From: Escherichia coli
GTDB lineage: Bacteria; Pseudomonadota; Gammaproteobacteria; Enterobacterales; Enterobacteriaceae
Length of the DNA stretch: 4,709 nt
Direction: 5' to 3' (one strand)
Assembly: GCF_003334785.1 (NCBI RefSeq)
Contig: NZ_QOWV01000045.1
Part shown: positions 1 through 4,636 of the stretch, in pieces
How positions within the stretch are numbered: position 1 is the first letter of the stretch
How the letters are laid out: the number at the start of each line of letters is the position of its first letter
Program-made: the position numbers and the translations under genes
Notes under the pieces: generated by a model
The model's database searches: none
Told to the model about the DNA's origin: nothing
The model's input: only the letters and a program-made list of their open reading frames with translations

Positions 1-71
1 GTGTATTTCTGGTCAACAACCAGTTGAGCGGATTCGCGTTTAAACTCTGCGCTAAAATTTCTTTTTTTCAT
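1..71 (-). CDS. IS3-family transposase OrfA (HTH subunit), first 23 codons only; the rest lies beyond the window start
   Basis: Minus-strand translation from ATG 71..69 gives [24 protein letters not shown]. This matches from memory the N-terminus of IS911 OrfA / InsN-type proteins (the SAEFK...AQLVV HTH lead-in). Too short to appear in the ORF track. Confidence 0.6.
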
Positions 72-143
72 TGGAGCACCTGTGTTGTTCTGAGGTGAGC
101 ATATCACCTCTGTTCAGGTGGCCAAATTCAGTGTGCCACTTCA
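1..143 (-). mobile_element. Left end of an IS3-family insertion sequence (IS911-like), cut by the window edge
   Basis: Read on the minus strand from position 143 the sequence begins TGAAGTGGCACACTGAATTTGGCC, a TG-initiated terminus typical of IS3-family inverted repeats. About 70 nt further in, an ATG (71..69) opens an ORF that runs off the window. The IS911 assignment is from memory. Confidence 0.6.
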
Positions 144-526: not shown

Positions 527-787
527 ATGTCGCAGACAGAAAGTGCAGTGACTTCCTCATTGAGTCAAAAGCGGTTTGTGCGCAGAGGTAAGCCTATGTC
601 TGACTCTGAGAAACAGATGGCCGCTGTTGCAAGAAAACGTCTTACACACAAAGAGATAAAAGTTTTTGTCAAAAACCCTCTGAAAGATCTCATGGTTGAG
701 TACTGCGAGCAAAAAGGGATAACACAGGCTCAGTTCATTGAGAAAATTATCAAAGATGAACTGCAGAGGCTGGATATACTAAAGTAA
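527..787 (+). CDS. copB: CopB (RepA2), transcriptional repressor of the repA promoter in IncFII-type replicons
   Basis: 86-aa [42 protein letters not shown]..., recognised from memory as CopB/RepA2 of R1/R100-type plasmids. Shine-Dalgarno GAGGAGG at 516..522 sits 4 nt before the ATG. Position immediately upstream of copA/tap/repA1 is as expected. Confidence 0.9.
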
Positions 788-820
788 AGACTTTACTTTG
801 TGTCGTAGCATGCTAGATTA
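781..820 (+). promoter_or_regulatory. CopB operator dyad overlapping the repA promoter (P2) region
   Basis: Perfect dyad AAAGTAAAG-A-CTTTACTTT at 781..799 spans the copB stop codon (785..787). Candidate -35 (CTTTAC/TTTACT, 791..798) and -10 (TAGATT, 814..819) lie within and just after it. The role is assigned from the known R1/R100 circuit; the exact hexamers are uncertain. Confidence 0.5.
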
Positions 821-904
821 CTGATCGTTTAAGGAATTTTGTGGCTGGCCACGCCATAAGGTGGCAGGGAACTGGTTCTGATGTGGATTTACAGGAGCCA
901 GAAA

Positions 905-996
905 AGTGAAAACCCCGATAATCTTCTTCAACTTTGGCGAGTGCGAAAAGATTACCGGGGCTAACAAGAAACCGTATAGCCAACAATTCAGCTATG
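905..996 (-). ncRNA. copA: CopA antisense RNA (about 90 nt), complementary to the repA mRNA leader (CopT)
   Basis: On the minus strand there is a small 5' hairpin (972..979 pairing with 991..998). It is followed by a long imperfect stem-loop (913..925 pairing with 948..960, 12 bp with one mismatch, 22-nt loop). A U-rich tail then follows (plus-strand 901..912 GAAAAGTGAAAA reads UUUUCACUUUUC on the minus strand), making an intrinsic terminator. A sigma70-like promoter sits just upstream on the minus strand. The ends are approximate. Confidence 0.6.
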
Positions 997-1001
997 CGGG
1001 G

Positions 1002-1030
1002 AGTATAGTCATATGCCCGGAAAAGTTCAA
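1002..1030 (-). promoter_or_regulatory. Candidate copA promoter on the minus strand, lying inside the tap coding region
   Basis: Minus-strand -35 TTGAAC (plus 1025..1030) and -10 TATACT (plus 1002..1007) are separated by exactly 17 bp. This places the transcription start near 995..997, consistent with the CopA structure. Confidence 0.45.
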
Positions 1031-1087
1031 GACTTCTTTCTGTGCTCACTCCTTCTGCGCATTGTAAGTGCAGGATGGTGTGACTGA
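1013..1087 (+). CDS. tap: Tap leader peptide (24 aa), translationally coupled to repA1
   Basis: ATG at 1013 preceded by GGGGAG (998..1003). It translates to [24 protein letters not shown] and ends at TGA 1085..1087, overlapping the repA1 GTG start at 1080. This matches the known tap/repA coupling arrangement. Too short for the ORF track. Confidence 0.75.
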
Positions 1088-1937
1088 TCTTCAACAAACG
1101 TATTACCGCCAGGTAAAGAACCCGAATCCGGTGTTTACACCCCGTGAAGGTGCCGGAACGCTGAAGTTCTGCGAAAAACTGATGGAAAAGGCGGTGGGCT
1201 TCACTTCCCGTTTTGATTTCGCCATTCATGTGGCGCATGCCCGTTCGCGTGGTCTGCGTCGACGCATGCCACCGGTACTGCGTCGCCGGGCCATTGATGC
1301 GCTGCTGCAGGGGCTGTGTTTTCACTATGACCCGCTGGCCAACCGTGTCCAGTGCTCCATCACCACGCTGGCCATTGAGTGCGGGCTGGCGACAGAGTCC
1401 GGTGCCGGAAAACTCTCCATCACCCGGGCCACCCGGGCCCTGACGTTCCTGTCAGAGCTGGGACTGATTACCTACCAGACGGAATATGACCCGCTTATCG
1501 GGTGCTACATTCCGACCGATATCACGTTCACATCTGCACTGTTTGCTGCCCTCGATGTATCAGAGGAGGCAGTGGCCGCCGCGCGCCGCAGCCGTGTGGA
1601 ATGGGAAAACAGACAGCGCAAAAAGCAGGGGCTGGATACCCTGGGTATGGATGAACTGATATCGAAAGCCTGGCGTTTTGTGCGTGAGCGTTTCCGCAGT
1701 TACCAGACAGAGCTTAAGTCCCGGGGAATAAAGCGTGCCCGTGCGCGTCGTGATGCGGGCAGGGAACGTCAGGATATCGTCACCCTGGTGAAACGACAGC
1801 TGACGCGTGAAATCTCGGAAGGGCGCTTCACTGCTAATGGTGAGGCGGTAAAACGCGAAGTGGAGCGTCGTGTGAAGGAGCGCATGATTCTGTCACGTAA
1901 CCGTAATTACAGCCGGCTGGCCACAGCTTCCCCCTGA
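1080..1937 (+). CDS. repA1: RepA1 replication initiator protein of the IncFII/RepFIC family
   Basis: ORF-track protein ...[41 protein letters not shown]... is recognised as RepA1. Starting at GTG 1080 gives 285 aa, the length I recall for R100 RepA1, with AGGA at 1072..1075 upstream and overlap with the tap stop. The track start at GTG 1068 has no ribosome-binding site and adds 4 unsupported residues. Confidence 0.9.
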
Positions 1938-2110
1938 AAGTGACCTCCTCAGAATAATCCGGCACGCGCCGGAGGCATTCGCACACCTGAAGCCCGTCAG
2001 TGCACAAAAAAACAGCGCCACATACAAAAAACAACCTCACCATCCACCTTCTGGTACATCCGGTTCCCCCTGTTTTTAATACAAAATACGCCTCAGCGAC
2101 GGGGAATTTT
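1938..2110 (+). terminator. CIS spacer between repA1 and oriR (C-rich, A/C-biased; Rho-dependent terminator region in R1-type replicons)
   Basis: The sequence between the repA1 stop and the DnaA box is C-rich and G-poor with runs of CACA/CAAAAA, has no ORF, and is about 170 bp long. This matches the described CIS element needed for cis-action of RepA. Function is inferred from position and composition only. Confidence 0.45.
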
Positions 2111-2300
2111 GCTTATCCACATTTAACTGCAAGGGACTTCCCCATAAGGTTACAACCGTTCATGTCATAAAGCGCCAGCCGCCAGTCTTACAGGGTGCAA
2201 TGTATCTTTTAAACACCTGTTTATATCTCTTTTAAACTACTTAATTACATTCATTTAAAAAGAAGACTTATTCACTGCCTGTCCTTTGGACAGACAAATA
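2111..2300 (+). other. oriR, origin of vegetative replication (DnaA box plus AT-rich unwinding region)
   Basis: DnaA box at 2113..2121 followed by an AT-rich block around 2205..2275 (TGTATCTTTTAAACACCTGTTTATATCTCTTTTAAACTACTTAATTACATTCATTTAAAAAG). Layout and distance from repA1 fit the roughly 190-bp R1-type origin. Boundaries are approximate. Confidence 0.55.
2113..2121 (+). promoter_or_regulatory. DnaA box (perfect consensus TTATCCACA) at the repA-proximal edge of oriR
   Basis: Exact 9-mer TTATCCACA at 2113..2121, about 175 bp downstream of the repA1 stop, where the oriR DnaA box lies in R1/R100. Confidence 0.65.
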
Positions 2301-2890: not shown

Positions 2891-3142
2891 ATGCCCAGTA
2901 TCATTTTGTCTGACACCAGTGCAAGCGTCAGTGAACTGAAAAAAAATCCAATGGCGACAGTCAGTGCCGGAGAGGGTTATCCTGTTGCCATTCTTAACCG
3001 GAATCAGCCTGCATTCTACTGTGTTCCTGCTGAATTGTATGAAAGGATGCTTGATGCTATGGATGACCAGGAGCTGGTGAAACTGGTTACTGAACGCAGC
3101 AATCAGCCACTACATGATGTGGACCTGGACAGTTATTTATGA
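2891..3142 (+). CDS. Type II antitoxin, Phd/YefM/StbD-like (83 aa)
   Basis: ORF MPSIILSDTSASVSELKKNPMATVSAGEGYPVAILNRNQPAFYCVPAELYERM... has the N-terminal pattern of Phd/YefM-fold antitoxins and an acidic C-terminal tail. Its stop overlaps the toxin start in ATGA (3139..3142), the classic toxin-antitoxin coupling. Confidence 0.8.
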   Translation: MPSIILSDTSASVSELKKNPMATVSAGEGYPVAILNRNQPAFYCVPAELYERMLDAMDDQELVKLVTERSNQPLHDVDLDSYL

Positions 3143-3426
3143 CTTATACGGTTAAATTCAGGGATGATGCCCTCAGGGAATGGCTGAAACTGGATAAATC
3201 CGTTCAACAACAGTTCGCAAAAAAACTAAAAAAATGCAGCGAAAATCCTCATATACCTTCAGCAAAACTACGTGGATTAAAAGATTGCTACAAAATAAAA
3301 CTTCGTGCATCAGGTTTTCGTCTGGTCTATCAGGTGATTGATGACATGTTAATTATTGCGGTTGTCGCAGTAGGTAAACGTGAACGTAGTCATGTTTACA
3401 ATCTCGCCAGCGAGAGAATGAGATAG
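3139..3426 (+). CDS. relE: RelE/ParE-superfamily toxin (RelE/StbE-like mRNA interferase, 95 aa)
   Basis: ORF MTYTVKFRDDALREWLKLDKSVQQQFAKKL...KLRGLKDCYKIKLRASGFRLVYQVID...VGKRERSHVY is closely similar, from memory, to E. coli RelE (KLRGMPDCYKIKLRSSGYRLVYQVID...VGKRERSEVY). Same length as RelE and 4-bp overlap with the antitoxin gene. Confidence 0.85.
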   Translation: MTYTVKFRDDALREWLKLDKSVQQQFAKKLKKCSENPHIPSAKLRGLKDCYKIKLRASGFRLVYQVIDDMLIIAVVAVGKRERSHVYNLASERMR

Positions 3427-3435
3427 GGGGTGTTA

Positions 3436-3981
3436 ATGCTTTTAAGTTTTAGTGAGTTAGATGTTCTTATTTATCAGGGGAAGGTTGGGGGTTTATTTCG
3501 TGAAAGAAAAAACGAAAGGATTGCTACAGACATTGATTCCAGAAACAAGTCATCATCAAGCAGTCATGAATATGATTCAGTTTTATCATTTCTATTTATT
3601 TGTGATAATGGAAAAGAAATAAATGTGAATTTAACAAATTGGAATATTAACATATTTCCAGGTCAAGAGATTGTCATTTATTTTGTGGAAAACTCAAAGA
3701 AAAACAAAAAAATACCATACATGATAAAAAACAAAAGCACATCGGAAGTGACTAATAATGTTCAAGAAATGTATAAAGAGTTTTTTTATACATCATACTT
3801 CAAACTGATAATACCTTTCCTTTTAATCATTTCTTACTTTATGTCATCCATATCTGTGGCTATCATGTCATTCGTTTTATATGTCATAATCAGAAGAAGA
3901 ATAGGAAAAGATTTCTTTTCAGAAATAAAAAGGAAAAGGTTAAAAAAAGAAGATATCATGGGGTTAGAGCACGTAATATAG
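3436..3981 (+). CDS. Hypothetical small membrane-anchored protein (181 aa from ATG 3436), AT-rich orphan gene of unknown function
   Basis: Uninterrupted 181-183 codon frame in DNA of roughly 25-30% G+C (by eye), where stop codons should be frequent. GGGGG (3425..3429) lies 6 nt before ATG 3436; GTG 3430 is an alternative start. The product has a polar N-terminal region with a Ser run, one long hydrophobic segment FKLIIPFLLIISYFMSSISVAIMSFVLYVII, then a basic tail RRRIGK...KRKRLKK. I recognise no family. Confidence 0.7.
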   Translation: MLLSFSELDVLIYQGKVGGLFRERKNERIATDIDSRNKSSSSSHEYDSVLSFLFICDNGKEINVNLTNWNINIFPGQEIVIYFVENSKKNKKIPYMIKNKSTSEVTNNVQEMYKEFFYTSYFKLIIPFLLIISYFMSSISVAIMSFVLYVIIRRRIGKDFFSEIKRKRLKKEDIMGLEHVI

Positions 3982-4028: not shown

Positions 4029-4070
4029 GCTACGCCGGAACCGCCGAAATTTCCGGCGTAGCTCTCTCTT
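4029..4070 (+). terminator. Candidate intrinsic terminator after the AT-rich gene
   Basis: Perfect 12-bp inverted repeat GCTACGCCGGAA (4029..4040) / TTCCGGCGTAGC (4051..4062) with a 10-nt loop, followed by the pyrimidine/T-rich tract TCTCTCTT. A second hairpin, GGTCC-TTATAAG-GGACC, lies at 3990..4006. The U-tract is weak, so the terminator function is tentative. Confidence 0.35.
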
Positions 4071-4126: not shown

Positions 4127-4507
4127 GGCTCCGTTTGGGAAACGGACAATATTGTACGGTTGCGTTATCGCGGTAGGGTGTACTCCCGCGCTATACGGTG
4201 TTTTCAGGATAATTGGTCTTAATCGGATAACCTAAATGCGATACAGCAAGAGCGACAACTTAAAAGCGATTAAACCTGCCGCCGCCAGAACGGTACAGTC
4301 CCTGACACAGGCACCACTGGTATAATCCAGTAAAGAGCATATGGAGAACTTATCATGTCGTCACGCAACTCTATACATGATTTTATAATGCTGCTCCCGG
4401 CGCTGCTGTTTGTTGGTAAGCGTACAGCCTGAACCGTCTGGTCAGAATCTGACGAATTAGACAAAGTGGTGTCCACCAAATAAGTAGTGGGAACCAAAGT
4501 GTCAGAT

Positions 4508-4636
4508 ATGCAGAAAAATGTGACTCCCGGCAGGCGAAAAGGCTGCCCTAATTATCCTCCCGAATTTAAACAGCAGCTCGTTGCTGCCTCCTGTGAACCC
4601 GGGATATCCATCTCAAAACTTGCTCTTGAAAAGTAA
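4508..4636 (+). pseudogene. Short OrfA-like fragment of an IS3-family transposase (42 codons then stop)
   Basis: ATG 4508 translates to MQKNVTPGRRKGCPNYPPEFKQQLVAASCEPGISISKLALEK and stops. The (Y/F)xxEFK...V...SIS..A pattern is the N-terminal HTH lead-in of IS3-family OrfA proteins, which are normally about 100 aa. A TGAACCG motif 78 bp upstream (4430) resembles an IS3-type end. Weak evidence. Confidence 0.3.

Follow-up and report, generated by a model that had tools for sequence, protein, structure and literature searches.

The locus studied here resembles several described replicons, of which those of plasmids R1, R100, and F are relevant throughout. R1 (NZ_KY749247) is arranged as copB-copA-tap-repA-CIS-oriR and R100 (NR1; NC_002134) as repA2-inc-repA6(tap)-repA1. 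CIS functions in the cis-action of RepA in R1. The RepFIC replicon of F (NC_002483) has the same architecture but is a relic, cut by a Tn3-family transposon that is annotated as ISEc63 and that we take to be Tn1000. The Inc RNA systems of IncI, IncB, and IncK plasmids share the logic of an antisense RNA, a leader peptide, and coupling, and their loop motif UUGGCG is shared with CopT, the target of the antisense RNA CopA. In R1, transcription is constitutive from upstream of copB, CopB represses a stronger repA promoter, and CopA inhibits RepA synthesis indirectly by blocking translation of tap, to which translation of repA is coupled (PMC5717011). A 1985 paper by Nordstrom and Nordstrom, cited in PMC5717011, indicates by its title that R1 and R100 have distinct copB systems.

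We analyzed a window of 4,709 nt, meaning the whole stretch of DNA taken from an Escherichia coli contig (NZ_QOWV01000045.1). The region at 390-2785 is, with little doubt on the strength of its sequence, an intact R1-type basic replicon (IncFII, RepFIIA), and 781-1087 is its copy-number control region. Its alignment with R1 is continuous, at 94.7% identity and with only two small gaps, and the order, sizes, and overlaps of genes are the same. The dyad at the end of copB, the hexamers of the repA and copA promoters, the Tap peptide, the CopA loop, and the DnaA box are identical to those of R1. Differences include eight CopA positions outside of the loop, a run of four rather than five U residues, a T>C substitution at 1010, and, in the AT-rich part of oriR, four substitutions; others, in coding sequences and spacer, are described below. 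R100 is likewise 94.7% identical to the window but only over 811-2785, from the -10 of the repA promoter onward; from copB (repA2) to the -10, R100 has a different module, without the AAAGTAAAG dyad. F has a hok-family gene upstream of RepFIC and is 92% identical over 811-1089, but it has another type of copB and an interruption shortly past the start of repA, a gene that is complete in the window. The earlier note had claimed that all parts of an R1/R100-type circuit can be placed on the sequence, and each was located at the positions given below. In the alignment to R1, copB, dyad, copA, copA promoter, tap, repA, spacer, and DnaA box are intact, and CopB, Tap, and RepA each score above the curated cut-off of NCBIfam. 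The presence, integrity, and positions of every part, along with predicted RNA folds and close homology, are established here.

The IncFII replication-control module is an already known system, and the window adds one more allele and nothing new. A megablast search with 400-2350 as query against 72,556 plasmid records matched at least 5000 of them, with at least 3414 covering at least 80% of the query. The best matches are two E. coli plasmids, one 100% identical (NZ_CP069544.1) and the other 99.9% (NZ_AP022179.1). The allele at 527-1090 is uncommon, as 12 of the 5000 best-scoring plasmid records have at least 99% identity. IncFII replicons routinely show such sequence variation. The value of the finding is in annotation, in that the contig belongs to an IncFII (R1-type copB) plasmid of E. 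coli. The region is usable for replicon typing and as a mini-replicon; it touches no open question in replication control.

The copB (repA2) gene (527..787, + strand) lies upstream of repA and in the same orientation. It encodes an 86-aa protein recognized as the transcriptional repressor of the repA promoter from its ORF and from NCBIfam (NF010256, 134.8 bits, cut-off 87) and Pfam (PF10723, E = 4.7e-43) matches. CopB is identical at 81 of 86 residues to that of R1 but at only 39 of 86 to the versions of R100 and F. Spanning the end of the gene is a perfect 9+1+9 dyad, AAAGTAAAG-A-CTTTACTTT (781..799), with 9-nt arms of 100% complementarity around a 1-nt spacer. The left arm includes the copB stop codon (TAA, 785-787), an overlap that had been pointed out earlier, and the right arm includes TTTACT (792-797), the candidate -35 of the repA promoter. 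No other perfect inverted repeat in the window has arms of 9 nt or more separated by 0-3 nt. Nevertheless, 6% of mononucleotide shuffles contain such a repeat, and on its own the dyad is only mildly unusual. A chance origin was considered and rejected on conservation. The significance of the dyad comes from its position and its homology rather than its rarity, as it is identical in R1 and recurs in an 8+1+8 form in a replicon with 76% nucleotide identity.

Comparisons across seven replicons reveal that the dyad covaries with the type of CopB. It is identical in R1 and in H3, a close relative. The 76%-identical replicon (L008) has an R1-like CopB, a different tap, and diverged flanks, and its version of the dyad, AAGTAAAG-G-CTTTACTT, lies across the copB stop. 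R100, F, and a Klebsiella replicon (L009) have the other type of CopB (∼39/86 identical) and lack the AAAGTAAAG dyad; the three have the motif ACATTCTTG between the copB stop and the shared -10. This shared distribution of CopB type and dyad is what an operator would be expected to show. The dyad is therefore presumed to be the CopB operator, given its position and covariation. A CopB footprint that would support this assignment was reportedly obtained by Riise and Molin in 1986. Two descriptions of the circuit (PMC5717011 and PMC4344636) do not describe the CopB site, and a further literature search likewise yielded no source for the footprint. The split in CopB type and dyad agrees with the separate copB systems of R1 and R100 to which the title of Nordstrom & Nordstrom 1985 (cited in PMC5717011) points.

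The putative repA promoter (792..819, + strand) consists of the -35 TTTACT (792-797), a 16-nt spacer, and the -10 TAGATT (814-819). These hexamers match at 8 of 12 positions, under the threshold of the promoter scan, and were read by eye; they are identical to those of R1. Overall, the scan was not significant (2 matches vs. 1.5 expected). Because the generic scan missed this promoter and was not significant, promoters were assigned by position and identity to R1. R100 and F become homologous to the window again at 811, immediately upstream of the shared -10, and the breakpoint at 810-811 (284-285 of the query) is recurrent, with approximately half of 40 spread-sampled match rows beginning there. 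Farther upstream, no constitutive promoter could be placed convincingly ahead of copB (about 440-526) by eye, scan, or consensus, and the best candidate is a -10 (TAGTAT, 480-485) that lacks a good -35. Inside copB, TCTTACACA at 640-648 is the DnaA-box8 of MiniR1-1, mutation of which is reported to raise plasmid copy number (PMC5883639).

The antisense RNA gene copA (904..995, - strand) has its 5' end at 995 and a U-rich tail that extends to about 896; the + strand of the same interval is CopT, the target of CopA in the tap-repA leader. The Rfam model for CopA (RF00042) matches 995..904 over its full length (1-92 of 92; 101.7 bits, gathering threshold 60; E = 2e-19). CopA is predicted to fold into a short 5' stem-loop I and a long, bulged stem-loop II with a 6-nt loop, CGCCAA. 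The fold has an energy of -35.7 kcal/mol (z = -4.96), and none of 200 shuffles was equally stable. Stem-loop II and its tail UUUUCACUUUUCU (896..964, - strand; arms at 913-925 and 948-960) form the predicted recognition hairpin and intrinsic terminator, in agreement with the terminator hairpin and U-tail recognized previously. Being long and bulged, the hairpin escaped a generic terminator scan, and Rfam and folding were relied on instead. The U run directly after the terminator stem has four residues, as in H3, compared with five in R1.

Relative to the CopA of R1 and R100, that of the window has eight differences that leave the CGCCAA loop unchanged and the helices kept. They are located at 907 and 908 in the 3' tail, at 943 (nt 53) in the upper stem, and in a block at 962-968 at the base of the long hairpin (spacer/lower stem). 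Nucleotide 53 is C in the window, U in R1, and G in H3, and is unpaired in the folds of both R1 and the window. The CopA of F differs at several positions of the upper stem, with compensating changes, and has the same fold and loop. On the + strand, the CopT hairpin has weak Rfam matches at 905-1033 and 913-960 to the IncI repZ and IncB repBA pseudoknots (RF01087 and RF01089). Membership in these families was rejected, as scores of 26.3 and 20.1 bits are far under the gathering thresholds of 44 and 45, and the matches reflect distant kinship of antisense-controlled replicons.

The copA promoter (1002..1030, - strand) is assigned to a -35 TTGAAC (1030..1025) and a -10 TATACT (1007..1002), because the -10 ends 6 nt before the 5' end of CopA and the hexamers, which match at 9 of 12 positions, are identical in R1, R100, and F. 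They are also identical in H3. The earlier note had put this promoter inside tap with an exact 17-bp spacing. The 17-nt spacing is correct, but tap contains no more of the promoter than the -35 and 12 nt of the spacer. Since tap starts at 1013, the promoter straddles its start, and the -10 is upstream of the tap ATG and adjoins the tap Shine-Dalgarno sequence. The spacer has one lineage-specific change, T>C at 1010, 3 nt before the ATG.

The tap gene (1013..1087, + strand) encodes a 24-aa leader peptide (TIGR03475, 60.6 bits, cut-off 35.05) that is identical at all 24 residues in the window, R1, and R100, and also in H3. Its Shine-Dalgarno sequence (GGAG, 999-1002) is 3 nt downstream of the end of the CopA/CopT duplex. 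An mRNA hairpin is predicted wholly inside tap (1046..1084, + strand), with the repA Shine-Dalgarno sequence (AGGA, 1072-1075) and GTG in its 3' arm. The hairpin is present in ViennaRNA folds of three different stretches and the energy is -18.4 kcal/mol for 1040-1110; by analogy to the R1 model, it would sequester the repA start region. The repA (repA1) gene (1080..1937, + strand) encodes a 285-aa IncFII replication initiator that matches TIGR03474 (580.8 bits, cut-off 446.9), NF010313 (617.2 bits, cut-off 478), and Pfam PF02387. RepA is identical at 279 and 277 of 285 residues to those of R1 and R100, respectively. Compared with R1, repA has 32 synonymous and 6 nonsynonymous codon differences, and such a mostly synonymous pattern is expected for a gene under selection. 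The GTG at 1080-1082 is the start annotated on the identical plasmid NZ_CP069544.1 and gives a protein of 285 aa, as in R1; the start of the longest ORF, a GTG at 1068, is not the annotated one and was rejected. Contrary to what had been claimed, the tap stop does not overlap this GTG. The TGA (1085-1087) begins 2 nt after the GTG ends and only the ORFs overlap, by 8 nt. In the PGAP annotations of NZ_CP069544.1 and NZ_AP022179.1, tap is not named. Instead, a 15-aa "hypothetical protein" (1040-1087, + strand) takes in no more than the end of tap, and copA is spanned by a CDS on the minus strand (813-1049) with the name "replication protein RepA." Both CDSs look like annotation artefacts.

Downstream of repA, a CIS spacer (1938..2112, + strand) of 175 nt has 15 substitutions and no indel relative to R1. 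It is followed by an exact DnaA box, TTATCCACA (2113..2121, + strand), which is the only one in the window and equals DnaA-box1 of R1. Spacer and perfect box had both been reported in the earlier note and were recovered as described. We place the box at the left end of oriR, whose boundaries (2106..2293, + strand) are approximate. The box is followed by a RepA-binding stretch and then an AT-rich segment (71% A+T at 2190-2280), in which all four oriR substitutions relative to R1 occur (2230, 2265, 2268, and 2286). The extent of 188 bp corresponds to the reported size of oriR (PMC5883639). Flanks of the box match the DnaA-box1 primers for MiniR1-1, and more generally, MiniR1-1 primers for DnaA-box1, DnaA-box8, and the repA start match the window except for the deliberately mutated bases and the restriction-site tail at the 5' end of the repA primer (PMC5883639).

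The window is homologous to both R1 and R100 up to 2785. Downstream of the replicon, those two plasmids have pemI/pemK (kis/kid), whereas the window has genes for a Phd/YefM-type antitoxin (2891-3142) and a RelE/StbE-type toxin (3139-3426) that overlap each other. The window has no kid gene but retains, at 793 and 818, two UUACU motifs, which we take to be the sites at which Kid cleaves the copB-repA transcript. The Kid/CopB rescue loop of R1 may be lost here, with its UUACU sites kept and pemIK replaced by the RelE/StbE-type pair.

The mechanism we propose for this replicon is the established one of R1, transferred by homology; binding, repression, translational coupling, and replication are expected to follow the same course. 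By analogy, copB, tap, and repA would be cotranscribed from a constitutive promoter upstream of copB. CopB bound to the dyad at 781-799 would switch off the stronger repA promoter (792-819), which has its -35 inside the dyad. CopA, expressed constitutively from the opposite strand (995..904), would pair with its perfect complement CopT, with CGCCAA making the first loop-loop contact. The resulting duplex, ending 3 nt upstream of the tap Shine-Dalgarno sequence, would block translation of tap, to which translation of repA is probably coupled. In the predicted fold, the Shine-Dalgarno sequence and GTG of repA are locked in the hairpin inside tap, and tap ends 5 nt past the GTG, so that RepA would be made only when ribosomes translate tap. 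The end of the duplex just before the tap Shine-Dalgarno sequence and the hairpin over the repA start fit the R1 model. The target of RepA, acting in cis over the 175-nt spacer, would be oriR, with the DnaA box at its start.

Differences from R1 and R100 could nonetheless mean that the replicon is a functional but distinct allele, with changes in CopA/CopT and the origin that alter incompatibility with R1/R100 or the set copy number. R1 and R100 are mutually incompatible and have CopAs identical to each other, and the window departs from them at the eight CopA positions (962-968, unpaired 943, and tail 907-908), at 1010 (T>C), and in its shorter U run; its exact allele is also rare among the best-scoring records. 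However, the CGCCAA loop and upper stem, where recognition starts, are unchanged, and nothing suggests a changed mechanism. Allelic variation of this sort is the basis of FII replicon typing. We regard an altered incompatibility or copy number as unlikely. It is rather improbable that the lineage-specific changes (CopA nt 53, 962-968, the short U run, T>C at 1010, and the four oriR substitutions) together define an altered-incompatibility or shifted-copy-number variant that has also lost the R1 Kid/CopB rescue loop.

Assignment to the RepFIC type of F and P307, rather than the RepFIIA type of R1 and R100, is very unlikely. CopB argues against it, as it is identical at 81 of 86 residues to that of R1 compared with 39 of 86 to that of F, which also lacks the AAAGTAAAG dyad, has a CopA that differs in the upper stem, and has a tap that differs at 2 of 24 residues. 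What suggests RepFIC, which the earlier note had mentioned, is a truncated hok-family toxin gene upstream that is arranged as in F, and the IncFIC label that is among the four of H3. The PLSDB/MOB-suite labels give no help in distinguishing FII from FIC, as even R1 and R100 carry the label IncFIA.

The R1-type replicon is probably functional rather than a relic, and may be the working origin of its plasmid, as the earlier note had proposed. Alignment to R1, R100, and RepFIC uncovered no disabling change, including in copA, tap, and repA1; all parts are intact, profile cut-offs are exceeded, and synonymous differences in repA outnumber nonsynonymous differences 32 to 6. In addition, the 100%-identical replicon of NZ_CP069544.1 (E. 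coli, 80,965 bp, circular) and the 99.9%-identical replicon of NZ_AP022179.1 (E. coli, 94,173 bp, circular) are the sole typed replicons of their plasmids, each of which has a single MOB-suite label, the same as PLSDB gives R1 and R100. In NZ_CP069544.1, tblastn identified one RepA and one CopB, Rfam identified one CopA and no other replication-control RNA, and the gene table, of a kind that is incomplete in PLSDB, has no other initiator. Many IncF plasmids are multireplicon (H3 has four replicon labels), the region is bounded by IS911 and IS66-family elements, and the transposon-cut RepFIC of F demonstrates that relics exist, but an intact yet silent second replicon on a plasmid really maintained by RepFIA or RepFIB is extremely unlikely. 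The ORFs, promoter hexamers, RNA helices, and origin box are undamaged, and most codon differences in repA are synonymous. No other type of replicon is present on the two nearest complete plasmids, with one RepA and one CopA. The end of IS911 at 143 is 384 nt short of the copB start codon.

The left end of IS911 occupies 1-143 (- strand), with terminal TGAAGTGG at 143..136 and the start of OrfA at 71, and is 100% identical to IS911 annotated on Shigella plasmids. Homology with the hok-family gene of F, in the window as in F presumably srnB, begins only at 144 (144-241 stretch). The gene upstream of the replicon is dead because IS911 cuts off its 5' part. On the other side, an AT-rich orphan ORF (3430-3981; 183 aa, 28.6% G+C) starts 4 nt after the toxin gene and encodes a protein with a hydrophobic C-terminal stretch. 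It has no match to an NCBIfam or PADLOC family. The ORF is in 90 plasmid records, mostly of Escherichia, all with at least 90% identity and all annotated as "hypothetical protein"; in NZ_CP069544.1, it is split in two pieces and apparently frameshifted. In the unannotated interval between the orphan ORF and an IS66-family end is a perfect 12-bp hairpin (4029-4062; GCTACGCCGGAA / TTCCGGCGTAGC) with a 10-nt loop and no match in Rfam. The IS66-family element (ISEc22-like) has a terminal repeat, GTAAGCG, starting at 4417 and a tnpA gene starting around 4487-4508. The window and NZ_CP069544.1 part at 4632/4633, after which the window follows NZ_AP022179.1 and has an apparent second IS66-type end (GTAACCGG...AAACCGTCTGGTC). 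Both ends of the window are thus in insertion sequences, as expected of a short-read contig broken at repeats.

The closest complete relative, NZ_CP069544.1, resembles a virulence plasmid of the enteroaggregative type, with a chaperone-usher fimbrial cluster, two AraC-family regulators, astA (EAST1), and a complete type VI secretion cluster. Also present are nikA/nikB of the IncI1 type and, about 3 kb upstream of the replicon, a group II intron.
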